NCBI GenBank assembly: GCA_010015805.1
Contig: ML978125.1
Location: 1 to 64,000, forward strand
Direction: 5' to 3'
Origin: Rhizodiscina lignyota
Taxonomy: Eukaryota
DNA length: 64,000 bases
The position numbers were made by a program, and so were the translations under genes. The notes under the pieces are model-generated. The model made no database searches, was not told where the DNA came from, and saw nothing but the letters and a program-made list of their open reading frames with translations. Shown piece after piece: positions 1 to 17,866 of the stretch (the stretch's first letter is position 1; every line of letters starts with the position of its first letter).

Positions 1-1755
1 TTAGCATACCTCTTAATCGTCTTACCCTACTACCTCACGTTTAATAGCTTCTTATTCGATATCTCGCCCGTCTCTCTCCTATTTACATAACATATAGCTA
101 TAAAACCTACAACTTCTAGCTGTACTACCTTTTACGCCTCCTAAATAACTATCTATACTATATTATACACCCTAACTAACTCCTACTCCCTTCTCGCATC
201 TATTATACTACTACTTTTACTATTACTTTTACTATTACTTTCGCTGTTACTACTTTTACTACTACTATTATCGCTACTATCGTCGCTACTACTACTATTA
301 CTATCGCTATCGCTCCTATCTCTATCTACTAGCATCTCCGCTATCTTGACTAACTACCTACGGTTAAACCCCTCTAAATACCTCGCCTATCCCGCCCTCC
401 TTAACTACATCTATAGTATATATCTATTCGTGTTAGCCTAGACTATTACCCTCTCCTCCTTAGCCTCTTACTTTAACCGCTTGTCTGCTAATATAAAAAC
501 CCTCTCTATCTGCCGCCTCGTAACGCGCTATGTCTACTTATCCCTATTAACTGTACTTTCTCCTTTATCTCCCTTACCCTTACCCCCTAGCCTCGCCGTT
601 ACCTTAAACAACCGCTACTACCCTCCTATCCTAAAAAACTACTAGTAATATACACCTACCGTCTATATCTCGTGCTCTTACGCCTCCGCAATAGCTAACC
701 TCGTCGCCCTACCGCGGCCGCGCCTGTTTACCTACCTATACTCCCTCTTATAATACTCCTATATATACTGTACCCTATAGTGTATAAATCCGTACTTACT
801 ATACCTAAACCTATTATCCTATAACTACAAACTGGCTAATAGCGCTAATATAGGCTCTAGGAACATAACGCCCTTATATACGTCTACTACATCTACTATA
901 CTAGCCGCTACACTCGCGATCGCCTTATAGGCCTTTACTATCGTCTTAGCCCTATACCTCTTATCTAAATACGATCGGACGTTAGCCTTAATAATAGCGT
1001 ACCTGTACTACCTGCAAATAATTACCTTGTACTATAGTAAATACTCGAAATAATCGCTAAAACCTGCTATCTCTCCCCTAATCTTTTAATCTCCCTCCCT
1101 CCTTAGTTCTACTATAGGTTCTTCCTTAACTAACGACTAGGGCAACTATTAAATAGCCTTCTAAATTTAATAATGTGTCTTATTATCTACTTAAATCCCT
1201 AATATTCTCCCCTTTTTCTCATTTCGTAGCTTTAACGCTTTAGCCCTAGCCGCGCTACGCGCGCACGCGCCCGCCCTACTCAAAACACGCGACTGCGAAA
1301 CTACTTCGTACTGCGGAAACGGGCGTGTACTACCCTATTACCCTACTATATTCGACTACAGCTTACCCGCCTTTAACTACAATTTACTTACTACTATCCT
1401 ACCTACCTACTACGTCCGACTACGACTTGTTTTACTTACTACATACTACACTAAACTACTCGCTCAGATTACGTGACCGCGAACACGAAAACTCCTACAT
1501 ACTATAGACTACGGCTATAACGTAACAACGCGCCGTAACCCTAATAGTTCTAACTACATAGCTAGATTAGGCGCGACTAGGACTATATTTCTACATGCTT
1601 AAAACCCGCCTACAGGCGCTACTTTACTACTTTCTCACAAATTACTTTAACCCTAAACCCTAAATCACCCCGACCCCCTCCTTATCCTGCCGGCGCTAAA
1701 TTTGTTAGTAGGCTTAAATCACTTCGAGTCGAAGTAATTATATAGTACAAGTTAG
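1..1755 (-). mobile_element. TLH (telomere-linked RecQ helicase)-type element, copy A (5' part; runs off the left window edge)
   Basis: Aligns with 4169-5923 at offset 4168. The minus strand from about 1070, after RIP reversion, reads F.HL.QYKVIICRQCRYAV...HL..H...C..C...HC..EHGW...CQQFF..GG.QRLFEV, which is the DUF3505 pattern. Confidence 0.8.
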
Positions 1756-4700
1756 CCTAACTAACTTCTACAACTACTTCCTTATGTCTGTCTTCTGTAT
1801 CGCTACCTACCTCCTAAACTCTTCTTTCTCCGCCTGCTACCTCCTACGGGCCGCTACTAAACCCTGCTCGGCTAGCTCCTACAATACCGATTCGAACATT
1901 AAAAACTTATGCTACTCCTTACTAACCTTCTAAAACATGACCTGCTGCGCTATAGTATAGAATAGCAACTTATTAACGCCCCTACTATATATACCCTCCC
2001 CTATCTACGCGCTATAGCCTGTCTACAAATAGAATCCGACCTCTCTCTAATTAAACCCGTTAATATGCTGCCCCTCCCCCTTCTCGTCCTCTCTCTACTA
2101 CCTACTATCCTTATCTCCTCTCGTAATAGCTTAGATAATAGCCTTATTATTAATATACTGCCTGTAAATCGCCTTGCTACTATACCTCTAATATATAATA
2201 TTTATCCTTACCCCTAAATATGTTATACTAGCCTTCTAGATCGCCTTTCTAACCCTATCCGTGTCCTAATACACCGTCTTTATTAATAGTAGCTACTATC
2301 TATCCTCTCTATTATCCCTTTCTTCTCCTCCTCCTCCTTCTTACCGTCTTCTCCCTCTTATCTTTAGGCCCTGCTACGCCTATTCTAGCTTTAGCTCCTA
2401 TAAAAACGGGCTGCGGCCGCTTCTACTACTACTAGCGATATTTCTACTATTATTGCCGGCGATATTACCGCTACCATCTCCTTTAACCTCTACCGCCGCC
2501 ACTACCGCCGCTACTATCGATATAACGGTAGAAACACTCTCTAACCTGTCCTAAAACAGCCTTACCAACTATAAATCGTATAATAATAACGACCTGACCT
2601 CGTGTAGCAAATACCGGTAGATTACCTTCTCCCTACTACTAAACCCTATACTCTTATAGTACTATACTATATATACTACTATCCTATCCTCTACGAAAAT
2701 GCCTCTACCCGCGCTGTCCACGCCGTTCTTATACCGTACCGTAACGATCTCTATACCCCTAGCCGGCTATCCTCCTATTATATGCATTAATACTAATAAA
2801 TCCTGCTTATACGCGTCTAAATCCTTCTTATACTACTAGATCCTATCTTTCTTCTATACAACCGGATCGCCGCTATTCTACTACTACCGCTACTACTACT
2901 ACTACTAGCTTCTATAGATTATATTATGCGTAGCCTTAGTATTAACAAACTCCTTACGTAACTGCCGCTCCCCTATAACTCTGTCTACTATCTACTTACT
3001 ACTATCGACGCCGCTAAACGCCTCTCTATTCCGCCTATTATCTACGAAACTCTACCTAACCCTTATCTCCACTATATTATCTACTATCTAGTCTATCTTT
3101 ACTAGTAGTAACCGCATCGTCGTATCCGCGCTATTAGGCCGGCCCTCGTTATCGACATGTAACAATAATAACCTCCTCTTAAACCTTAACTATAACGCGT
3201 ATACTAACCTATAGATTATCGCCTGTAAATCCGGCATACTAAAATTAATATAGCTGTATAATAACCTATCGCTAACCTAATCTACTACTCCGTCTACTAC
3301 TATACTATAATATACCTTTAACCTGTACGTCCTTAATATTAAAACCTAATTTATCGGCGTTAGCTTGCCGCTAAATGCGGTTAACGTTATAAACCTGTAT
3401 ACTATCTCCTACACTAACTAGAAATAGGTTAGCGCCTTCTTTAATGCCTCTACCCGGCTAAAACCTTACTCTTCCCTTATCTCTTTAATTACTACTTCCC
3501 TTATTAACTTCGCATAGTATAAAACTAATATCTTAGTGACTGTAACGACTGCTAACAATGCTCGCGTCGCCTTAGACAGCCCTTTCTACGCGTAATCCTC
3601 ATCTAACCCTAAAACCGCCAATCCGCTGACGATGCCGTTTGTATATGCGTCGTCCTGCACGTCGTGGTCTAACAATGCGATCAAAAACTCTAATATCGCC
3701 GCTTCCACCTCACCGTCTTCTTTATCTCCTTCCCTTTCTTCCTCTCCTTACTCCTACTCTTACTCCTACTCTTGCCCCCGCCCTTATACCTTCTTACCCT
3801 ACTCCTCTTCACGCCTAATAGCCTGTCTAACCTATATTAATACTCTAACCTATCTACTAGTTAATCTATACGGTAGTCTTTTCTACCTAATACTATTTTC
3901 TGCCTCTTCTCTCCCGTCCCTCCCTCCTCGCCTTCTTCCCTCTCGCCTGGCCCTTTCGATCTCTATACGCATCTCCTTATCTGACCCCGAATCCCTTTCT
4001 GAATCTTCCTCTAAATCCTCTTCTGCTGGCCCTGTCGACGCGTCCCCCGACCCGCTATTACTATCGCTACTACTACTACTCCTACTACTCTTCCTCCCCC
4101 TCCCCCCTTTTATCGCCTTTAGCAAACCCTATATCCTCTAAATATAACAAACTACCTTATACTAAACCTTAGCGTACCTTTTAATCGTCTTACCCTATTA
4201 CCTTACGTTTAACAGCTTCTTATTTAATATCTCGCCTGTCTCTCTCCTATTTATATAATATACAGCTATAAAACCTACAACTTCTAGCTATACTACCTTT
4301 TACGCCTCCTAAATAACTATCTATACTATATTATATACCCTAACTAACTCCTACTCCCTTCTTACATCTATTATACTACTACTTTTACTATTACTTTCAC
4401 TATTACTTTCGCTATTACTACTTTTACTACTACTATTATTACTACTATCGTCGCTACTACTACTATTACTATTACTATCGCTCCTATCTCTATCTACTAG
4501 TATCTCTACTATCTTAACTAACTACCTACAGTTAAACCCCTCTAAATACCTTGCCTATCCCGCCCTTCTTAACTACGTTTATAGCACGTATCTATTCGTA
4601 TTAGCCTAGACTATCGCCCTCTCCTCCTCGGCCTCTCGCTTCAACCGCTCGTCTGCCGACATGAAAACCCTCTCCATCTGCCGCCTCGTGACGCGCTGTG

Positions 4701-5238
4701 TCTGCTTATCCCCATTAACTGTACTTTCTCCTTTATCTCCCTTACCCTTACCTCCTAGCCTTGCTATTACCTTAAACAACTACTATTACCCTCCCGTCCT
4801 AAAAAACTACTAGTAATACACGCCTACTGTCTACATCTTATGCTCTTACGCCTCCGTAATAGCTAACCTTATCACCCTACCGCGGCCGCGCCTATTCGCC
4901 TACCTATACTCCCTCTTATAATACTCCTACATATACTACACCCTACAGCATATAAATCCGCACTCGCTATACCTAAACCCGTTATCCTATAACTATAAAC
5001 TGGCTAATAGCGCTAATATAGGCTCTAGGAACACGATACCCTCATATACGTCTACTATATCTACTATACTAGCCGCTATACTTACGATCGCCTTATAGGC
5101 CTCTACTATCGTCTTAGCCCTATACCTCTTATCTAAATGCGATCGGACGTTGGCCTTAATAACGGCGTACCTGTACTACCTGCAAATAATTACCTTATAC
5201 TATAGTAAATGCTCGAAATAATCGCTAAAACCTACTAT
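1756..5238 (-). pseudogene. RIP-inactivated TLH-family ORF (DUF3505 plus recombinase-like middle region), truncated
   Basis: Start ATG mutated to ATA at about 5238. Many TAG/TAA stops fall at Gln/Trp codons. The readable frame ends ...DIRKQLQKLVR at the 1756 junction. Confidence 0.8.
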
Positions 5239-5923
5239 CTCTCCCCTAATCTTTTAATCTCCCTCCCTCCTTAGTTCTACTATAGGTTCTTCCTTAACTA
5301 ACGACTAGGGCAACTATTAAATGGCCTTCTAAATTTAATAATACGTCTTATTATCTACTTAAATCCCTAATATTCTCCCCCTTTTCTTATTTTATAGCTT
5401 TAACGCTTTAGCCCTAGCCGCGCTACGCGCGTACGCGCCCGCCCTACTTAAAACACGCGACTGCGAAACTACTTCGCGCTGCGGAAATAGGCGTATACTA
5501 CCCTATTACCCTACTATATTCAACTACAGCTTACCCGCCTTTAACTACGATTTACTTACTACTATCCTACCTACCTACTACGTCCGACTACGACTTGTTT
5601 TACTTACTACGTACTACGCTAAACTACTCGCTCGGATCACGTGACTACGAATACGAAAACTCCTATATACCGCGGACTACGGCTATAACGCAACAACGCG
5701 CCGTAACCCTAATAGTTCTAACTATATGGCTAGATCGGGCGCGACTAGGACTATATTTCTATACGCTTAAAACCCACCTACAGGCGCTACTTTACTACTT
5801 TCTCGTAAATCACTTCGACCCTAAACCCTAAATCACCCCGACCCCCTCCTTATCCTACCGGCGCTAAATTTGTTAGCAGGCTCAAATCACTTCGAGTCGA
5901 AGTAATTATATAGTACAAGTTAG
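1756..5923 (-). mobile_element. TLH-type element, copy B (longest; 3'-truncated just before the expected helicase domain)
   Basis: Same right terminus (...GTACAAGTTAG) as copy A. Relic ORF carries DUF3505, WLRRAGWARHLEG, DN.AE.RVGWSF.DDRRN, TGGQPARG.E, YHK and IHRYLP..VG motifs, typical of fungal telomere-associated RecQ proteins. Confidence 0.8.
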
Positions 5924-8900
5924 TACCGTACTACGTATACTACTATCCTATCCTCTACGAAAATACCTCTACCCGCGCCGTCCGCGCTATTCTTATACTA
6001 TACTATAACAATCTCTATACTCCTAGCTAGCTATCCTCTTATTATATGTATTAATACTAATAAATCCTGCCTATACGCGTCTAAATCCTTCTTATACTAC
6101 TAGATCCTATCTTTCTTCTATATAACTAGATCGCTACTATTCTACTACTACTACCGCTACTACTACTACTAGCTTCTATAGATTATATTGTGTGTAGCCT
6201 TAGTATCGACAAACTCCTTATATAACTACTACTTCCCTATAACTCTGTCTACTATCTACTTACTACTATCGACGCCGCTAAACGCCTCTCTATTCCGCCT
6301 ATCATCTATAAAACTCTACTTAACCCTTATCTCCGCCGTATTATCTACTATCTAGTCTATCTTTACTAGTAGTAACCGCGTTGTCGTATCCGCGCTATTA
6401 GGCCGGCCCTCGTCGTTAATATATAATAATAATAACCTTCTCTTAAACCTTAACTACGACGCGTGTACTAACCTATAGATTATCGCCCGTAAATCTAGTA
6501 TACTAAAACTAATGTAGCTATATAATAACCTGTTACTAACCTAATCTACTACTCCGTCTGCTACTATACTATAATATACCTTTAACCTATACGTCCTTAA
6601 TATTAAAACCTAATTTATTAGCGTCGGCTTACTACTAAATGCGGTTAACGTTATAAACCTATATACTATCTCCTACGCTAACTAGAAATAGGTTAGCGCC
6701 TTCTTTAATGCCTCTACCCAGCTAAAACCTTACTCTTCCCTTATCTCTTTAATTACTACTTCCCTTATTAACTTCGCGTAGTATAAAACTAATATCCTAG
6801 TAACTGTAATAACTACTAATAATACTTATATCGCCCTAAACAGCCTTTTCCACGTATAATCCTTATCTAACCCTAAAACCGCCAATCCGCTAACGATGCT
6901 ATTTATATATGCGTCGTCCTATACGTTATAGTCTAATAATACGATTAAAAACTCTAATATTACTACTTCTACCTTACTATCTTCTTTATCTCCTTCCTTC
7001 TCTTCCTCTTCTTACTCCTACTCTTACTCCTACTCTTGCCCCTACCCCTATACCTTCTTACCCTACTCCTTTTTACGCTTAATAGCCTATCTAACCTATA
7101 TTAATACTCTAACCTATCTACTAGTTAATTTATATAGTAGTCTTTTCTACCTAATACTATTTTCTACCTCTTCTCTCCTATCCCTCCCTCCTTACCTTCT
7201 TCCCTCTTACCTAGCCCTTTTAATCTCTATATATATCTTCTTATCTAACCCTAAATCCCTTTTTAAATCTTCCTTTAAATCCTCTTCTACTAGCCCTATT
7301 AACGCGTCCCTTAACCTACTATTACTATTACTACTACTACTACTCCTACTACTTCTTCTCCCTCTTCCCCCTTTTATCGCCTCTAGTAAACCCTATATCC
7401 TCTAAATATAATAAACTACCTTATACTAAACCTTAGCGTACCTTTTAATCGTCTTACTTTACTACCTTACATTTAATAGCTTCTTATTTAATATCTTACC
7501 TATCTCTCTTCTATTTATATAACATATAGCTATAAAACCTACAACTTCTAGCTATACTACCTTTTACGCCTCCTAAATAACTATCTATACTATATTATAT
7601 ACCTTAACTAACTCCTACTCTCTTCTTATATCTATTATACTACTACTTTTACTATTACTTTCGCTATTACTTTTACTATTACTACTTTTACTACTACTAT
7701 TATTACTACTATTATCGCTACTACTACTATTACTATCGCTATTACTCCTATCTCTATCTACTAGTATTTTCGCTATCTTAACTAACTACCTATAGTTAAA
7801 CCCCTCTAAATACCTTACCTATCCTACCCTCTTTAACTATGTCTATAGTATGTATCTATTCATATTAGCCTAGACTATCGCCCTCTCCTCCTTAGCCTCT
7901 TACTTTAACTACTTATCTACTAATATAAAAACCCTCTCTATCTACTACCTTATAACGCGCTATATCTACTTATCCCTATTAACTGTACTTTCTCCTTTAT
8001 CTCCTTTATCCTTACCCCCTAGCCTTACTATTACCTTAAACAACTGCTACTACCCTCCTATCCTAAAAAACTACTAGTAATATACGCCTACTATCTATAT
8101 CTCGTACTTTTATACCTCTATAATAGCTAACCTCGTCGCCCTACTACGGCCGCGCCTATTTACCTACTTATACTCTTACCTATAATACTTCTACATATCC
8201 TCCTATGTGTAGTATATATGTCCGCACTTATTATACTAATAACTATTATCCTATAACTATAAACTAGCTAATAGCGCTAATATAGGCTCTAGATACTAGA
8301 CCTTCTCGCGTATAACTACGATGTCTTCTACTATAATACTACTTACTTCTACTATAATCGCCCTACGCGCGTCTACTATTAACTTACTCTTATACTTCTA
8401 GCTTAAATGTAAACTTATACTACTCCTAATAACGGCGTACCTATACCTCCTATAAATAATCGCCTTATACTACGGTAAATACTTAAAATAATCGCTAAAA
8501 CTTGCTATCTCTCCCCTAATCTTTTAATCTCCCTCCCTCCTTAGTTCTACTATAGGTTCTTCCTTAACTAACAACTAGGGCAACTATTAAATAGCCTTCT
8601 AAACTTAATAATACGTCTTATTATCTACTTAAATCCCTAATCTTCTCCTCCTTTTCTTATTTTATAGCTTTAACGCTTTAGCCCCTAGCTATACTACGCG
8701 TATATACCCGCCCGCCTACCCTGCTTAAAACACGCGACTACGAAACTACTTTCGTACTACGGAAATAGGCGCGTACTACTCTATTAACCTACTATATTTA
8801 ACTATAGCTTACCTACCTTTAACTATAATATACTACCTACTATCCTACCTACTTACTACGTCCGACCGCGACTTATTTTGCTTACTACGTACTACGCTAA

Positions 8901-9207
8901 ACTACTAATCCTACTTAGATCACGTGACCGCGAATATAAAAACTCCTATATACTGCGGACTATAGCTATAACGTAATAATGTACTATAACCCTAATAGTT
9001 CTAACTATATAGCTAGGTTAGGCGCGGCTAAAACTGTATTTCTATATACTTAAAACCCGCCCCTAGGCGCTACTTTGCTACTTTCTCGCAAATTAGGTTC
9101 GACTCTAAACCCTAAATCGGTCTAACCCCCTCTTTATCCTACTAGCGCTAAATTTGTTAGTAGGTTTAAATCAGTTCGACTTGAACTAGTCGTATAGTAC
9201 GAGTTAG
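5924..9207 (-). mobile_element. TLH-type element, copy C (truncated at the YHK motif)
   Basis: From 5924 it aligns with copy B from about 2660. Relic start at about 8508. Terminus ...GTACGAGTTAG at 9207. Divergent patch at about 8170-8430. Confidence 0.8.
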
Positions 9208-10227
9208 GGGTTTATAGAGCTAATTCTTATAGCGCCGGAAAGTGCGCGTAGAGGCGCATATTACGCTATTAAAACTGCGGCATTCCGTCGACGCGAAGGC
9301 GGGATATATAGTAGGGAAGAAGCTAGTCTGTCTTTTAGGCGCGCGGTAGTTAATCCTTCTATAGCCTTAACGTTAAATCTCCGCTAAGATTAAGGACATC
9401 TTAGCGCGCCTAGGGGGGTTACGGCCCTACTAAAGCCTATCTTCCTATAGCCCCTATTAGTAATATAGAGGTTGCCTAGGATTGGCCGCTATATTGCTAG
9501 AAGCTATTCTACTATATATAAAAGAAAGCGTAAATAGCTAGAGTAGGGTTAGTACCTTTATATTTAATTATAACCTTATATAGACAGACTAGGCTTACCT
9601 CTTAGCTCCTTTTCTGTCTATCTCCTCCTCTCCTTTTTAGTCCGCTTAGCGATAGTTTATAGTCTTTAGACTACCTCTAGACTTGCGTTTGTAGCTTAGG
9701 TTACGTGATATTTCGGAGAGAAAGACTTAGTTCTTACCTCTTAAAGGGTCTAGGGCCTTAAGCCTCTTACTAGCTTACTACTACTAGACTAAAGGGCTAT
9801 AAGAAGCTTAGTCGCTTCTTATATAGGTCTTTTAAGTGCCTTTAGCTAACTTAAAGCCAACGCGCTAACTGTAATAACATTATAAATAGTAGTACTCTCT
9901 TATAGAAGAGAGTCGACTTCTAATAGCTTTAGTTAAAGTACTAAGGTAGGATAACTACTATAGCTACCGCCTACTACTAGAGTAAAGGGTCCCCCTCTCT
10001 CGGCTAGTTCCTTTAGTTAATCGCGTATAAAGTAGGATAGGCGAGCGAGGGCGAAGGGGCTTAAGGGCTAAGAGGGTATATAGAGGTTAATACGCCCGCC
10101 TCTACTTCTACTAGGGGTACTACCTTAAGTTAAAAGAATATTTCTCTAGACTCTTACCTCTATACTTTACCTTACCTTACTAGACTCTATCTATCTATTA
10201 ATAAGGTCTTATATCCTTTTCTAGGGA

Positions 10228-10470
10228 GTACGCTTAGTGCGTAAGCTTATATACAACGCTCTTTAAGCGCTCTTTTAAAAGCGTACACTTAGTAAACTAG
10301 CTTTAATCTAGCGCTTTCTTAGCGCCTCTCTAAAGGGGTATACTTAGTATATAAGCTTATATGTAACGCTCTTTAGGCGCTCTTTTAAGAGCGTGTACTT
10401 AGTAAATTAGCCTTAATCTAGCGCTTTTTAGGCGCCTCTCTAGAAGGGTATACTTAGTATACAAGCGTTA
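10228..10470. repeat. 55-bp tandem repeat with 110-bp higher-order period
   Basis: Units start at 10228, 10283, 10338, 10393 and 10448 (gtacgcttag/gtatacttag...). Alternate units are more alike. Related copy at about 10822-10895. Confidence 0.8.
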
Positions 10471-10500
10471 ATATAGTGCGTCCTTACTACCCTCTTCCTT

Positions 10501-11050
10501 AGGGAGGATCCTACCTTAGCCTTTACTAGCTTTCGACCCTTTTAGGTCCTTTACTAGATCTAGAGGGCCTAGAAGGCGCGCCTTAGCTACTTCTCCTCTT
10601 TTAGAGAGGATTCGACCTCGGTCTTTACTAGCTTCTAGGCTATTTTAGGTACTTTACTATATTTAAAAGGCCTTAAGGCTATAAATAAGGAGGTATATAT
10701 ATAGCCCTACTTAGAGAGGATTCGACCTTAGTCCTTACTAGCTTCCGGCTTTTAAGATACTTTGCTAGACTTTAAGCTAGGTAGAGAGTTACGATCTAGA
10801 TATACTTAAGGAACTTAGAAGCGTACTTAACGTACAAGCTTGTATTTAACCTTCTTTAGGCGCCCTTTTAAGAAGGTACGCGTAGCGCGTAAGCTAATCT
10901 CTACTAGACTAGATAGAGTTACTACTATTATACTTCTTAGTTATCCTACTATCTTTACGCGATTTTATAGGAAAGAATAGTAGGCTTTATTAAGGGAGAT
11001 ATATATAGCCTTACTTAAAGAGGATTCGACCTCGGTCTTTACTAGCTTCT
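10501..11050. repeat. Dispersed ~32-bp motif AGAGAGGATTCGACCTCGGTCTTTACTAGCTTC, four copies
   Basis: Copies at about 10501, 10603, 10713 and 11017. Confidence 0.75.
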
Positions 11051-11249
11051 AGCCTTTAAGGTACCTAGCTAGCCTCTTCTATATAGGGTATACTACTACT
11101 ACTAGTAAAGTAGTAAAGCGATTGTTTACTACTAGGGCTATTCTTTTATACCTTGTACTAGTACTCTACTATACTACCTATAGTAACGATCGCTCTTAGC
11201 AATCTACTCCTCCTACTCTACCTTACTCTAGCTTATCTAGGGTAGTAGC

Positions 11250-14200
11250 GCTAGAGGCCTACTTAGCTAGTACCTCTTCTATAGCTACGCCTAGTAGTTA
11301 TATAGCTCCTTATTACCTACTATCTTAGCTAGAGCTACTACTACTACTATCCTCTTTGTCTATAGTAGCCGCGCTACTATAGCTCTCCTCGCTACTTACG
11401 CGTTTATATTAAGGCTAATAATACTAATTAAATACTATATCCGCCCTCTACTCTTACTCTTCTTCCTTATACCTAATAGGCCCGACTACTTATCCGCGTA
11501 TAGGAGTAGCTAGTAGAACCTAAGTAGGTACTTATATAGGTACTAGTTAAATACCCTTCCTAGCTCTACCTCTCCTCTTTTACGCGGAAGGAGCTTAAGG
11601 CTAGCCCTTACTACGCTAAAAAGGGCATAGTACAACTTCCTCTCGTACGTACCTAAGTACGCGTAGCTATTATTGCCTCTACTAGGGCTAAGTAAGATAG
11701 TAGCAACGTTTAAAGGGTATAGGGTCCTAGTCTTATTGCCTAATATAAGGTAGAAGTCGTCGCGTATAATCTTAAACAGGTACTTATAGTAGAATAGCTA
11801 TAGGCCCTAGACCGCGCGCTTATAGTACTCCTCTAGTACCTACTTACAGGCTATGCTAATAACGTTAGCGCGGAGCTACTATAAGTAGATATACGCTAGC
11901 TAGCGTACTATACGTCCTACTATCTTCTCGTTACGCTAGTACTTTCTAGCCTACGATAGCGCTAGCTCCGCCTGTATACGCGCGTTAAAGAAGTCTTATA
12001 CGCGGCTACTACGCTAGAAGTACTTTCTATATAGTATGCTACTACTAAATAGCATATAGTCCGTTACGTTCGACTAGAAGGCTAGACTAGCCTACTTAAA
12101 CCGTAGCTCTAGCTAGTAGTAGCTATATTATAGTAGCGTATTATAGAAGCCTAGCCCTACCTATACTCTCTACTACCTATTCTACTTATCGCCTACTACC
12201 TACTTACAACGGCTCTACTATAGTAATAACTCCCTCCGTAGTTAGTAGCTACTAAGTACGAAGTAGAGGTAGTATAGGAATATAGTTATTATCTTCGTCT
12301 ATTCCTATAGTATTAACCTACTATAGTACTACGCTAGGACTATTTCGAAGCCGGCGGCGAACTTATTAGCGTAGTATTAGACGAAGCCTAGGTAGATATT
12401 AGTCCTAATTAGCTACGCGTATAGCGGGTAGTCTATAAGTAGGAGCTCTTTCTCTTACTACTACTACTACTACCGCTACTCCCTCTCCTCTTATAGCTAG
12501 GGGCCTTATATAGCCTTATAGAGCTTTAGGCGGTCGATAAGGCCCTAGAATAGCGACTAGCGTATCTAGTACTCTTCGCGGATACTAAAAGACTTTTACG
12601 TAGAGTCTTGAAGCGTAGTATTAGTATAGTGCTTACTAGCGTAGTACGTATCCCTTAGTATAGCTACGTCTCTAGAACGGCCTCTTATAGCGCTATAGGC
12701 CCCCTAAAGGACTACTAGGTCTATAGCTAGGTCCTTAAGGTCGCTATTAGCGAATAGCATCTACTTTATAGCGTCTTACACCTCTTTTACTAACGTGTAG
12801 AACTAGCTATAGATAAGGCCTCTCTAGTAGAGCTTAAAGCGTGCTAGTAGTACGCTTATAAGGCTATAGGCATTATAGAGCATGTTTAGCTTAAAGTACT
12901 ACTACCTACTAGTCCTAGTAGCTAGAAGGCGGCTATTATATATTTAGTACGTATAGCACTCTAGGTAGTACCGCTTCTAGTAGTATACCTACGCCTTATC
13001 GTCGATATACTACCGCTATAACTAAAGTAGGCTTACTTCTAGGCAGATCTCCTTCGCGAGGTCGATATAGAAGTAGTCCCTATATATAAAGGCGAGGTCG
13101 AGGGCGCGCTTAATATATGCCTTAAAGTAGCATATCGCGTCTAGTAGTATAGGCTATACCGCGCTTATTTTAAAGCGTAGCTTTATCCCCTTTATAGAGA
13201 AGAAGAGCTATAAATCGCGGAAGTTGCTAAGCTATAGCAAGCCTCTAATAGTATCCTAGATAGTAGCCTAAATGCGGTCGAGGTATAGTAGCTAGATATA
13301 GTAGCTAATACTCTACTACGTCTAGTACCCCTTCCCTCTTACGCTTTAGGCCTCTATCTAGTAGGCCTACGCGCTTACTCACGAGTACGCGGCGCTAGCG
13401 GGCAGGTACTAGACGTAGTGTATACTATAGTACTCGTAAACTACGGGAAGAAGGATATTATTAAGCTAAAGTAAGTACTAGCTACTAGTTAGCGACGTAA
13501 ACTTCCCCTCGTACGCGTACTATATATATAGGAACAGTATATACACGGTAATCTTATCTACGCTAGATACGCGGCTAAGCTAGAAGTAGGGGACGTTACG
13601 GAGTATAGTAAGATAGGACTATAGAGCGTAGGTAGTATTATACTCGTCCTACTACCCTATAAATACAAGCGTCTTTAAATAGATATTAGTAGTAATATTC
13701 TGCGTTAGTATTAGTACTAGCTATAGTAGAAGCCTACTACGGGCTATAGTAAGGCTACTACTAAATCCTAGGAAGCTATTAATGTTAAAGGCAACCTAGG
13801 CGCCGATAGCGCGTATCTCCTCTACGTATAGGTAGACGCGCGCTAAGAGGGCTAGACGGCGCTAGCTACGTCTTTAGCAGATCTACTAGAGGCCTACGAG
13901 CTGCTACTACTAGTCCTATTATAATATAATGCTATAGAAGGTAGCCTGCTACTATACTTCTATTAGCTGCTCCTACTACGCGAGGCGGTCTAGCGTAATA
14001 ATATCGGGTAGTAAGAGTATATTAAGAAAGGCCCTATCGTTAGATAGGTCCCTTAGGCTATAGTACTTACTATTAACAGCTACTACTACTACTTCGTGCT
14101 TATAGCGCTTATCTACGTACTCCTCTTCTATATAGCTATAGAAGCTATATTATAGCTAGTTATATAGCTTTTAGACTGTATAATCGTATATTAGGAGCTC

Positions 14201-15395
14201 CTTATCCCCCTCCTCTTCTCCTCTCTCCTATATACTACCTACTAGTATACTAAGATCCGCGCTTAACGCTACGTCTATAGCGTCTATAGCTACTATAACT
14301 ACTACTACTATACTAATATTAGCATCTTAACCTAAAGCTACGTCTACTACTACTACCCTAGGATCTTCCGCTAGTACTACTAGCCCTACTACTACTATAA
14401 CCTATACTATATCTACTACTATACCCTATTTATCTACTACGCGTATATTAAGGTCTATATCTACTAGTATATTATTAGTACTTAGTACGTCTACTACGCT
14501 TAATACGTCTAATATCCTAGTTTATAGTAGGCTAGTAGAGCTAGTAACTTTAGTAGTAGGGGGAGGGCGCTATAGCGTGTAGGGTATAGTTAGGATAGTA
14601 AGGTTTAGTTAACGCGAAGGTAGGTTAGGTAGAAGAGAGATCTATAGCGTAAAGAGGATACTAGTAGCTATACTTATAGCTATACTTATAGCTAGTAGTA
14701 GTAATAGTACTAGTAGTAGTACTAGTAGTAGTACTAGTAGTAGTACTAGTAGTATAGTAGACGAGGACGCTATAGTAGGTAAGAGGGCTTAGAAGAACTA
14801 GTAGATACTATGCTATCCTACTATTAGTAGGGACTTTAACTTTAACTTTAACTTTAGCCTTAACTTTAACTTTAGCCTTAGCTTTTCCCTAGCTTTAGCT
14901 CTAGTCTTAGTTCTAATAGGCCTACGCGCTACTACTACTTCTAAGTATAGTAGGTTTAGGTAAGTAGAGAGGTACGTTTATACTATTGCTATTATTGCTA
15001 CTACTACTACTACTACTACTACTTCTTCCTCTACTACTATTATTAATAACGACAGTAATAATAATAATAGCAATAGCTACTATTACTAGTATAGCTAGCT
15101 ATACTCCTCTACCTCCTCTACCTCTTTCCTCCTATCCTACTACTACTACTCCTACGTATTAAGGCTAAGGCTAAGGCCTTATAGCTACTAGCTAACGCTA
15201 GTAATACTACTAAGTATACATATAGCGTCTAGTTCGTTAAATAGGCGCTTAGCGATAGTATTAGCCTACTATAACTACTCTATAGTCTAGTATAGCTATT
15301 ACGCCTCCTCCTCCTATTATAGCTCCCTCTTCTCCTTCTAGCGCGCCTAGTACCGCTATACACGCTCTATAATACCCTTATACAGACTAAGGGCA
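11250..15395 (-). pseudogene. RIP-inactivated large ORF of an uncharacterised fungal repeat-associated family
   Basis: RIP-reverted motifs in order: ERV.RY.ARQKE; low-complexity linker; GFHGC.EEEH; FDIDSFLGFSSSLAVAR; LRDVPHF.LGRV; YVQHLPAS; DFRDLQLFFSAKGTKL; FYIDLAKEIC; GGLIYSQFY.SVKE; SFGIREEHRI; GLGF.NTL..YGYCWLEPR; HWLLPY...RMWYSI. Ends are approximate. Confidence 0.7.
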
Positions 15396-15690
15396 TATAG
15401 GTTAGTAGTATTAGTTAATAGGAGCTATCCCCTCTTAGGGCCTAAGGCTAGTAGCGCTACTACTAGTACTAGTACTAGTAGTAGTAGTAGTAGTAGTACT
15501 AGTAGTAGTACTATCTCTCCTCTTATAGCTACCCTACTCCCCTCCTACCCTCTATATATATAGTATCTCTAACCCTCTATCTATCTATAGCGTATAGCGT
15601 AATAAAAGAGATAGTAGAGGATAAGCGATTAAAGAGAGGAGAGAGAGGATAGGAGATAGGTAGATAGCTACTACTACTACTACTATACTT

Positions 15691-16390
15691 ATTATATAGG
15701 TATTATAATCTAAAATTAGATTAGAGCGCCTACCCCTACTACCCTACTCTATAAGTAGTATAGTAGTAGTATTATAGTAGTAGTAGTAGTAGTAATAAGC
15801 GATAGAAGGCTAAGAAATACTATATTAAAATTAGAGAGGAAAGCGGAAGAGGGCGTAGAGTAGCTACTTATACCTTTATTTCCGCTCTATTAACGCTACG
15901 CGCGCGTACTAGCGAGACTTTACGCTCTACTATAGCGCTTATTACGTAGGCGTTACAATTTAGCGCTAGCCCTCCGCCCTTTTACTCTACAAGCAGCGAA
16001 AGTAGCGCTAGGCGGCGCGAGGCCTTAAATAGAGCGAGAATAAAAGCGTACGCAGCTACTCTACGCCCTCCCCTACTCTTCTCTCTAATTATTATATAGT
16101 ATATACTATCTCTCTCGCGCGCGCGCGCGTAGCGAGCTACACTCTTAACCCTAGCTTATAGTTACGTAGGTATTATAATTTAGCGCTAGACCTCTACCCT
16201 AAAAGTAGCGCTAGGCGGCGCGAGGCCTTAGATAGAGCGAGAATTAAAGGCGCACATAGCTACTCTACACCCTCCCCTACTCTTCTCTCTAATTATTATA
16301 TAGTATATACTATCTCTCTCGCGCGCGCGCGCGTAGCGAGCTGTACTCTCGTCTCGACCCCTAGCTCGTAGTCACGTAGGTATTACAATT
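15691..16390. repeat. Iterated terminal repeats: ~210-220-bp direct repeats, ~75-bp inverted repeat and a 20-bp motif in four copies
   Basis: About 15999-16180 matches about 16202-16390. About 15818-15891 is the reverse complement of about 16028-16101. GTCACGTAGGTATTACAATT variants at 15691, 15941, 16161 and 16371. Confidence 0.85.
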
Positions 16391-17866
16391 CACCCCTACG
16401 CCTCGCCCTCTCCGCCGGCGACCTCTCCAACTTTGCCATACTTACTATACTACCACGCCGCGAGCTATTTAGTAAACAAGACCTACCCTCTACTGCCTGT
16501 GCCCGCCGCTCGCCGTCCCGCTCTTTTTTTCCCCTATTTAGGCCCGCCGCGCGCCTGAGCCCTAAGCCGAATCCGAGCCATAGAAAAGGGGCGGAGAGAT
16601 CGATGCCGGATAGAGTAAATCCGGCTCAGCTCATTAAATCCGCGCGTCCGATATCTCTCATCCTTCATAATATCTCTCATTACTGCCTCTCTGAAGAGCC
16701 CTCATAGCACGTCCAGTCTAATGTCTGGGCATCACGTCTGTTTGACAGCTTTATCTCTCCGTCTTTGCTTCGTTTGAGCAGATTTGGCAACTTTGCGCGA
16801 AGCTCTGTTCCTTGATCGCGGTGGAGTTCCGGTGGAGCTCCGGTGGACTTCCCCGGATTAGTTCTTTCTTCTCTCGTCACAATTGTGGTCAACTCAATCT
16901 AGATCCTTGTTCAAGGGCTTAACAACAACTTGGGTCATTCATTAATCGGCAATCCTCGGCGGATTCGGCTCTGATTCGGTCGTATACGGTGCTCAGCCGA
17001 CAGGTTCTGATTCAGGACTCCTTGGACAATCTTGGTTCATGATAGCGAATACCTATGCAGCGACCAAAGAAGTTGAAGCTTGTCCTGGGCATGCCCTGAT
17101 TCAAGTCTGAGTCAACATGCTCTACATTGCAACCTTGTTGGTTGTAAAGCCCAAGACACCATCCAAGACACTATCAGCAAGAAAACGGAAGAGAGCCTCA
17201 TCTCGCTGACCAGAACTCATTCCTGTCCGTATACCCAATCCGTCGGTAGAAACCAATGCATGGCTTTTCGGTCCACAGCATCTTGCATATGAAAGTCTTG
17301 TTGGTGCCCAGGGAAGTATTTCCAAATCGTTCCCATCTTTCTCGTCGTGTCTTTGCTATTCGTTCCATTTCCCCAATTTCTTCTCGCTTGTCTGTGGGTC
17401 TAGACTCTAGACTGGTTTGAGCCTTGCGGCCGCCCGGGGACCGTAGCCCAGATTCTCGGTAAATGTACACCATTACAACTTGATAACCATTGGATGGAAG
17501 AGCTAGGGCAAATTGTCAACCTTAAATGATCCTTCCCGGACACGCTAACATGAGTGGACCGCCCCACTTCTCCACACGCCGCAAAATTAGCTCAAACCTG
17601 ACTCGCCAACCCCAGAGTTCTCCGCGGGCATGGTTCTAGGCTTATTGGCAGTGGTTCGACCTCATCTTAACAGCTTGTTACCTCAAGCCACGTCTTATCG
17701 TCCTCATCCCCTCCTTTGTGGCTTACCATACCCTCGGTTGTCTCTGGGAAGGATCGGGAAATTGAAATAGAACGATATAAGAGAGTGTGTATCCCTCAAT
17801 GTAATCGTTCTACAAGGATCGAATTCTTCTCGCGCGATAACTAGGCCTTCCAAATCTCATGCAGTC

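Follow-up and report, generated by a model that had tools for sequence, protein, structure and literature searches.

What kind of gene lies behind the stop-ridden open reading frame (ORF) near the start of contig ML978125.1 of Rhizodiscina lignyota (assembly GCA_010015805.1)? The window analysed here comprises positions 1 to 64,000 of the forward strand of this contig. In it, an initial annotation had described a repeat damaged by repeat-induced point mutation (RIP), whose ORF at 12570-13110 carries, once RIP is reverted, three motifs resembling those of the Rep_trans rolling-circle initiators of pT181 type. We find that this ORF is what RIP has left of one copy of a fungal gene that is widespread, multicopy and without a name. 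The further reading that we favour, of a relic of a telomere-associated element that coded for a Rep_trans-like tyrosine nickase and has inactivated helicase-like neighbours, is in our judgement about evenly balanced.

The ORF is part of an AT-rich block with a GC content of 0.33-0.43, against ~0.50 elsewhere in the window, and the interval originally described is only the middle part of a 2.76-kb remnant:

1..16000, no strand: RIP-affected AT-rich block with the family-gene remnant and helicase-gene remnants (GC content and RIP indices)
11447..14203, minus strand: RIP-degraded pseudogene, conserved ~850-amino-acid (aa) core of the family protein (profile and phmmer matches)

Across the first 16 kb, TpA/ApT is 2.1-2.9 and (CpA+TpG)/(ApC+GpT) is 0.06-0.25, and the unique DNA beyond 16 kb has values of 0.6 and 1.3. 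At 11399-14098 the two indices are 2.76 and 0.13, the first far above the RIP threshold of 0.89 and the second far below that of 1.03; this segment is a RIP-affected repeat, as had been proposed. The minus-strand frame of the remnant has its codon starts at 16198-3k, and the 94 stops among the 900 codons of 14098-11399 (minus) were read through as Q or W for translation. The remnant, from 14203 to 11447, aligned in a single frame to positions 78-926 of the 994 in a profile of 52 homologues (A1; E 6.9e-138, hmmsearch); therefore, the copy was ruined by transitions and not by indels. Its closest relative is P0003 (E 8.2e-153, phmmer), a protein of 939 aa with 39% identity across query residues 10-870. 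With such values the match to the family is far beyond chance. A Pfam search of the remnant, read through its stops, and of other frames of 9-16.2 kb returned noise only. Downstream of the remnant there is a tandem array of 55-bp period with dispersed 41-nt repeats (window 10207-10481 and 10499-11055). A 6-bp periodic array (CTAAAG/TTAAAG/TTAAGG/CTAGGG) is found at 14832-14898 (minus), with ~630 nt between it and the conserved core downstream; either a telomere-repeat tract altered by transitions or a mere microsatellite in the variable N-terminal region could explain it.

How large is the family? In a search that covered 1.84 billion cluster representatives, relatives of the remnant numbered 402 at E<=1e-3, 227 at E<=1e-10 and 67 at E<=1e-30. 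Intact members are fungal and mostly 1,150-1,300 aa long; they begin with MPxKRGRP, followed by a segment rich in Cys and His, then by ~450 aa of beta-rich core and, C-terminally, by ~350 aa of helical structure. In the N-terminal part (e.g. P0005 1-370) the MPxKRGRP start is AT-hook-like and is accompanied by a basic RRRxxxxRxR stretch and an acidic low-complexity spacer, after which come invariant, metal-binding-like Cys and His residues (C284, H289, H296, H304; C347, C362, H364, e.g. in P0005). The gene is intronless in the metagenome loci, where it gives single tblastn segments of ~3.5 kb, and it is multicopy: clusters at 90% identity hold 13-137 members, one exact family protein is encoded on 10 contigs and others on 5-6, and two members share one contig of Fusarium oxysporum. 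A second search named only 'hypothetical' or 'uncharacterized' proteins, from Verruconis gallopava, F. oxysporum and Exophiala spinifera, and the 120 relatives that it listed have no precomputed Pfam domain. Likewise, Pfam matched none of 12 full-length members (E<=0.01) and none of 23 core sequences (E<=10). A sequence-profile search of the PDB with A1 gave noise, the best match being a calcium-channel subunit at E 0.44; the ESM Atlas yielded no usable match, and pattern scans of viral contigs (64 pattern matches) and of prokaryote genomes (33) confirmed no relative.

What might such a protein do? The three motifs of the initial annotation were found at their described places, in the described order and in one minus-strand frame, and their RIP-reverted spellings are close to the motifs of intact homologues, which together with the motif of strand 1 read FDIDSFLGF, RFYVDLGKE, GGLIYSQFYxSVKE and KSFGIREEHRI:

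13763..13789, minus strand: FNINSFLGF, RIP-mutated form of FDIDSFLGF, beta-strand 1; candidate equivalent of the Rep_trans metal ligand D46
13049..13072, minus strand: FYIDLAKE, on a long strand ([YWF]xDx[GA]xE in the family); may correspond to Rep_trans RxDxAxD
12782..12823, minus strand: RGLIYS*FYTLVKE, family motif GGLIYSQFYxSxKE; the second Tyr codon (12799-12797) is the candidate nucleophile
12563..12592, minus strand: SFSIREEY*I, on the RxExR strand (KSFGIREEHRI in the family); may correspond to Rep_trans R212/E214

An alignment of 52 diverse members, with 24-53% identity to the first sequence, has only 14 invariant columns, and these include every residue that had been flagged from the window. 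An AlphaFold2 model of P0003, built with the same 52 sequences, is confident (pLDDT 90.7, pTM 0.87) and places the conserved residues as follows (numbering of P0003):

D124 and D126: 52/52 each, strand E119-132
D369: 52/52, strand E361-376
Position 371: G in 36 and A in 16 of 52
E373: 49/52
Y453: 44/52
Q455: 51/52
Y457: 52/52, end of strand E451-458
K461: 50/52, helix H459-463
E462: 41/52, helix H459-463, at Y+5
R530, E532 and R534: 52/52 each, strand E529-536
E590: 52/52, helix

This arrangement recalls the active site of RepDE. According to the available text of Carr et al. 2016 (PMC4797284), it comprises D46, R140-x-D142-x-A144-x-D146 on strand 6, T176/Y178/G180 on strand 9, R189-x-Y191-x-K193 on strand 10, E196 on the next helix and R212-x-E214 on strand 11, with D46, D142 and E214, one per strand, as metal ligands. 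The order in the family is D124-x-D126, Y367-x-D369-x-[G/A]371-x-E373, Y453-x-Q455-x-Y457, the helix with K461/E462 and R530-x-E532-x-R534; it equals that of RepDE and falls on matching secondary-structure elements. Both thus have an invariant Asp on strand 1, a DxAxD-like strand, a Tyr strand, then a helix bearing Glu at Y+5, and an RxE strand, and in both the catalytic-looking residues occupy alternate positions of sheet strands. The three carboxylates D126, D369 and E532 lie on separate predicted strands in the order of D46/D142/E214, Y457 stands at the end of its strand with E462 spaced from it as E196 is from Y191, and between the DxGxE and Tyr strands there are three others, like beta7-9 of RepDE. 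By order and topology rather than by superposition, Y457 may be the equivalent of Y191. That the modelled core is a Rep_trans-like, metal-dependent tyrosine nicking-joining domain we believe about as much as we doubt it.

If so, the core would fold as a TBP-like curved sheet of Rep_trans type, in which D126, D369 and E532, invariant carboxylates on three strands, would bind a divalent metal. The nucleophile would be Y457, placed where the next strand ends; its attack on a DNA phosphate would give a covalent 5'-phosphotyrosine, and the nick would leave a 3'-OH able to prime synthesis. The unit around the gene could then be a telomere-associated, nick-primed (rolling-circle-like) replicative element, of which the copy in the window and its helicase-like neighbours would be inactivated relics. 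It is doubtful, in our view, that the unit propagates in this way at telomere-type sequences, aided by a RecQ-type helicase.

Is the gene part of such a unit? The context was surveyed in 50 metagenome loci encoding relatives. Intact copies lie in units of ~5-13 kb, which often adjoin telomeres, the 3' end of the gene pointing toward the chromosome end. Perfect (TTAGGG)n arrays are present at contig ends in 4 of the 50 loci, each of them on the downstream side of the gene, all oriented alike and 1.3-9.5 kb beyond the end of the ORF (in L037, beyond the matched stretch):

L007, 5420-5497: (TTAGGG)n array, contig end
L017, 16514-16627: (TTAGGG)n array, contig end
L019, 5505-5582: (TTAGGG)n array, contig end
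L037, 22286-22393: (TTAGGG)n array, contig end

In L014, two telomere units are found 2.5 kb downstream. Upstream of the start codon stands a direct repeat of 18-21 nt, CCAAGAGCGTGACAATTC, in 2-3 copies; it is nearly invariant among copies whose proteins are only ~50-60% identical. In 11 loci, which represent 8 distinct elements, its exact 14-nt core, AGAGCGTGACAATT, is present as two direct copies, both upstream of the gene and none elsewhere:

L001 (158-193), L002, L006, L007, L013, L014, L015, L020, L024, L027 and L028: loci with CCAAGAGCGTGACAATTC

A looser pattern finds 2-6 copies, always on the gene strand; a RIP-tolerant pattern had 0 matches in the window. CCAAGAGCGTGACAATTC is a candidate binding site for a protein, whether as iteron, origin or promoter element. 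A conserved GTTGAAGT stands before it, and in L002, L004, L006/L007, L020, L021 and L027/L028 the first repeat has a TAGGGTTAG-like motif 161-170 nt upstream. L006 and L007 have in common a 98%-identical unit, with different sequence upstream of ~position 96. The units of L006, L007 and L020 end in CATAGGGTTATACCCTAACCTCT, which in L007 is followed by ~60 nt including a (GATGTG)n run and then by the telomere. Target-site duplications, one of the points raised initially, were not found in the related loci. Self-BLAST of the 33 loci of at least 4 kb detected no terminal inverted repeats (TIRs) or long terminal repeats (LTRs). Tandem arrays lie beside the ORF in many loci. In two of them an array of ~30-bp period stands on both sides of the gene, in direct orientation (L008, 46-156 and 4627-4741; L009, 80-274 and 4669-4865), as would be expected in an assembly from a head-to-tail array or a circular template.

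The window also contains helicase-like neighbours. In positions 1-9207 a unit of 3.3-4.2 kb occurs three times in tandem (starts 4168 and 3264 apart, blocks 82-96% identical), and all copies are affected by RIP. Two remnants of telomere-linked-helicase (TLH)-like genes lie there, downstream of the family-gene remnant and on the same strand:

2533..3696, minus strand: TLH-like (OrsD/TLH-domain) gene remnant in a tandem unit (tblastn, L046 residues 367-729, E 3.3e-41; 903-aa protein of L011, E 1e-17)
5950..6960, minus strand: second remnant of a TLH-like gene, next tandem unit (tblastn, L046 residues 367-678, E 1.8e-30)
9103..9128, minus strand: GGGTTAGACCGATTTAGGGTTTAGAG, a motif similar to telomere repeats, where the ORF unit meets the first helicase-like unit (1 match, with 0 in 100 shuffles)

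The TLH-like remnants lie inside the three tandem units, so that the 'first element' of the initial annotation is a RIP-degraded TLH-like gene array. Related units have at their 5' ends a TAGGGTTAGA motif that GGGTTAGACCGATTTAGGGTTTAGAG resembles, and exact TAGGGTTAG 9-mers occur four times on the minus (gene) strand within 1-9200 (at 2249, 3603, 6867 and 7245), where we estimate that about 0.04 would be expected per strand in 9.2 kb. On the right-hand side of the block, a ~213-bp direct repeat of ~2 copies with (GC)n and (GA)n runs (window 15950-16400) sits exactly where RIP-affected DNA gives way to normal GC. TAGGGTTAA at 16145-16153 was considered as a unit boundary and rejected, as it is part of this tandem repeat, the other copy of which reads CTAGGGGTC.

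Related loci have similar neighbours. The OrsD-domain proteins of L011/L016 (903 aa, encoded downstream of the family gene on its strand) and L046/L047 (1,490 aa, encoded upstream of it, also on its strand) are homologous, and it is the part preceding the helicase domain in the OrsD+RecQ-type protein of L046 that the remnants in the window match. This L046 protein has DEAD and Helicase_C domains, and its best PDB relatives are RecQ helicases (RECQ5, E 6.5e-33). TLHs are described, in the accessible text of a preprint (10.1101/2024.02.27.582403), as RecQ helicases with a 'TLH domain' and, at the N terminus, Cys/His motifs; judged by its domains, the L046 protein has this architecture. A shared SNF2-like gene, a second type of helicase neighbour, lies downstream on the same strand in L013 (7227-10807), L027 (6170-9270) and L037 (17125-19036). 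Altogether, a helicase-type neighbour is present in 5 of ~15 distinct loci with at least 2.5 kb of flank, and the window is a sixth case. In the window the helicase domain itself was not detected in the TLH-like remnants, and there is no array of at least two TTAGGG units, only the telomere-like 9-mers and the degenerate 6-bp array. A possible TET/JBP link was dropped: the candidate at L044:4184-5281 (minus), beside a distant family member, stays below the Pfam cut-off for Tet_JBP (E 6e-5, 22.7 vs 34.9 bits), and the available part of Kojima 2025 does not list such an element.

Could the gene simply be a passenger? It may be subtelomeric cargo or a host gene, TLH-like, that is multiplied by telomere-repeat recombination, break-induced replication or tandem amplification and not by an enzyme of its own, an explanation that we consider unlikely and yet worth serious attention. 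It would account for the four terminal telomere arrays, for the telomere-like short tracts in or beside units, for RecQ-type TLH-like genes as neighbours and for the lack of TIRs, LTRs and target-site duplications in related loci. As far as the accessible text of the TLH preprint goes, the TLH-containing regions of F. oxysporum consist of units, solitary or in arrays, that telomere repeats flank on either side (10.1101/2024.02.27.582403), and amplification between short telomere tracts is put down, in the available part of a review, to host recombination or rolling-circle replication (PMC8381367). Against it, a catalytic-looking set of invariant residues is kept down to 24% identity to the alignment reference, and an upstream repeat of 18-21 nt is conserved among copies with proteins of only ~50-60% identity; moreover, 46 of the 50 loci lack a telomere array at their end (most contigs, however, are short), and L006 and L007 carry their common unit behind differing 5' flanks. 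The rolling-circle mobility speculated on at the outset we only infer.

How far does the likeness to Rep_trans go? The Rep_trans/MobT proteins (PF02486: pT181 RepC, pC221 RepD/RepDE 4CWC, RepSTK1 4CIJ) are the best structural matches to the core. Both representatives, 4CWC and 4CIJ, were recovered by two separately built models, with TBP next, at scores of noise level, and no other beta-rich fold was among the matches listed. In 4 of 4 Rep_trans matches D126 falls on D46 (RepDE) or D9 (RepSTK1), if the first 8 residues of the strand are left ungapped. Several results weigh against a kinship. The Pfam model PF02486, which gave 36.5 bits with pT181 RepC as positive control, matched 0/12 full-length homologues (E<=0.01), 0/23 cores (E<=10) and not the window ORF. 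Profile-profile comparison by hhalign with a Rep_trans alignment of only 10 sequences (Neff 3.3) was not significant (E 0.15 with A3, 0.68 with the A1 core). When it was run by motif segment, one of four fell on its expected partner (QVAFDIDSFLG on KLSFDAMTIVG), all at E>0.2, and the RxExR segment aligned, non-significantly, to FGVRDSNR of Rep_trans strand 9. Foldseek, with both models against the PDB and with the whole model against BFVD, gave no match at E<=1e-3; with the core alone, 4cwc_A came at rank 42 (E 2.0). In addition, the Lys is at Y+4 in the family and at Y+2 in Rep_trans. Weak BFVD matches were two TFIID/TBP proteins and an Inoviridae protein (E 1.2-2.8), and in a two-copy complex prediction of the core the fold itself was uncertain. 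The interpretation first proposed is partly supported.

These results leave room for a core that is a new enzyme or DNA-binding fold, only superficially Rep_trans/TBP-like, with the invariant D/D/D/E/Y/K/R/E/R in other chemistry, for instance as a metal-dependent nuclease or nucleotidyltransferase without a covalent Tyr. All sequence-based comparisons with Rep_trans are negative, the structural scores are at noise level with Foldseek silent, and FDIDS also resembles the hDhD metal motif of nucleotidyltransferases and primases. We nevertheless regard this as improbable: two separately built models retrieved both Rep_trans representatives, with TBP next and no other beta-rich fold among the matches listed, and the invariant residues agree with the published active site of Rep_trans in order, strand placement and i/i+2 spacing. 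A very divergent DDE/RNase-H-fold transposase of an undescribed superfamily, with the triad D126/D369/E590, would fit the three invariant acidic residues, the last on a helix, and a multicopy family targeted by RIP, and it is very improbable, since no RNase-H-like transposase or integrase, many of which are in the PDB, was among the listed top matches of six fold searches, Pfam gave no transposase match and the 33 loci compared with themselves show no terminal inverted repeats. Nor did Pfam match HUH, Rep or Helitron-like domains, and no HUH structure was among the listed fold-search matches.

If the core is indeed a Rep_trans-like nickase, how does it compare with known systems? It has no detectable sequence or profile similarity to Rep_trans, the protein is four times larger, with long helical insertions and extra N- and C-terminal domains, and the family is eukaryotic, chromosomal, telomere-associated and intronless. 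A paper of April 2026 states, in its accessible part, that Rep_trans enzymes appear restricted to bacteria and that the archaeal family Rep-Arvir/DUF7845 is structurally related to them (PMC13107129). As described there, this family is a precedent for kinship by structure only, with marginal Foldseek matches in the PDB, a TBP-like fold and a conserved Tyr. It differs in belonging to archaeal viruses and plasmids, in having a ~300-aa catalytic domain with a winged helix-turn-helix and in that its function is proven by mutagenesis. DUF7845 had no Pfam match in 12 full-length members or 23 cores. Like Helitrons and Replitrons, the family combines a candidate Rep-like nickase with a helicase gene, is multicopy and shows no TIRs. 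Those elements use HUH endonucleases, with a Pif1 helicase fused in Helitrons, whereas the family lacks an HUH motif, its helicase is a separate RecQ-type or SNF2-like gene found at some loci only, and it is associated with telomeres.

The units resemble more broadly the TLH regions of Magnaporthe oryzae and F. oxysporum, the Y' elements of yeast and MoTeR/FoTeR in that they adjoin telomeres, are bounded by short telomere tracts and are sometimes arrayed; as in TLH regions, a RecQ-type TLH-like gene neighbours the family gene in the window, L011 and L046. In the available descriptions, TLH, Y', MoTeR and FoTeR have a helicase ORF or a reverse transcriptase only, and the family protein has neither domain. 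The accessible texts of the TLH preprint (10.1101/2024.02.27.582403), the FoTeR paper (PMC12857005), the telomere review (PMC8381367) and the Leptosphaeria maculans genome paper (PMC3105345) do not describe the family. A literature search, which covered few subscription journals and neither Repbase nor supplements, so that absence in print is not established, found no eukaryotic Rep_trans-like element and no second conserved TLH-region gene matching the family. It is tempting to speculate, and we do so tentatively, as the odds are rather against it, that we are dealing with the first eukaryotic branch of the Rep_trans/TBP-fold nickase superfamily, on a telomere-targeting, nick-primed fungal DNA element that cuts at or near TAGGGTTA-type sequences and works with RecQ-type telomere-linked helicases.

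Even without the Rep_trans reading, the family offers a conserved module of ~850 aa with 14 invariant residues that is confidently foldable and matches no known fold or function. If the Rep_trans layout is true, the superfamily would extend to eukaryotes, and a non-HUH tyrosine nickase would join the short list of eukaryotic transposition and replication enzymes. A telomere-targeting nickase, if true, would give the long-puzzling subtelomeric units of TLH and Y' type a mechanistic origin. With a large unannotated family at chromosome ends, in the company of TLH genes, the origin and amplification of TLH- and Y'-like subtelomeric units could become testable.

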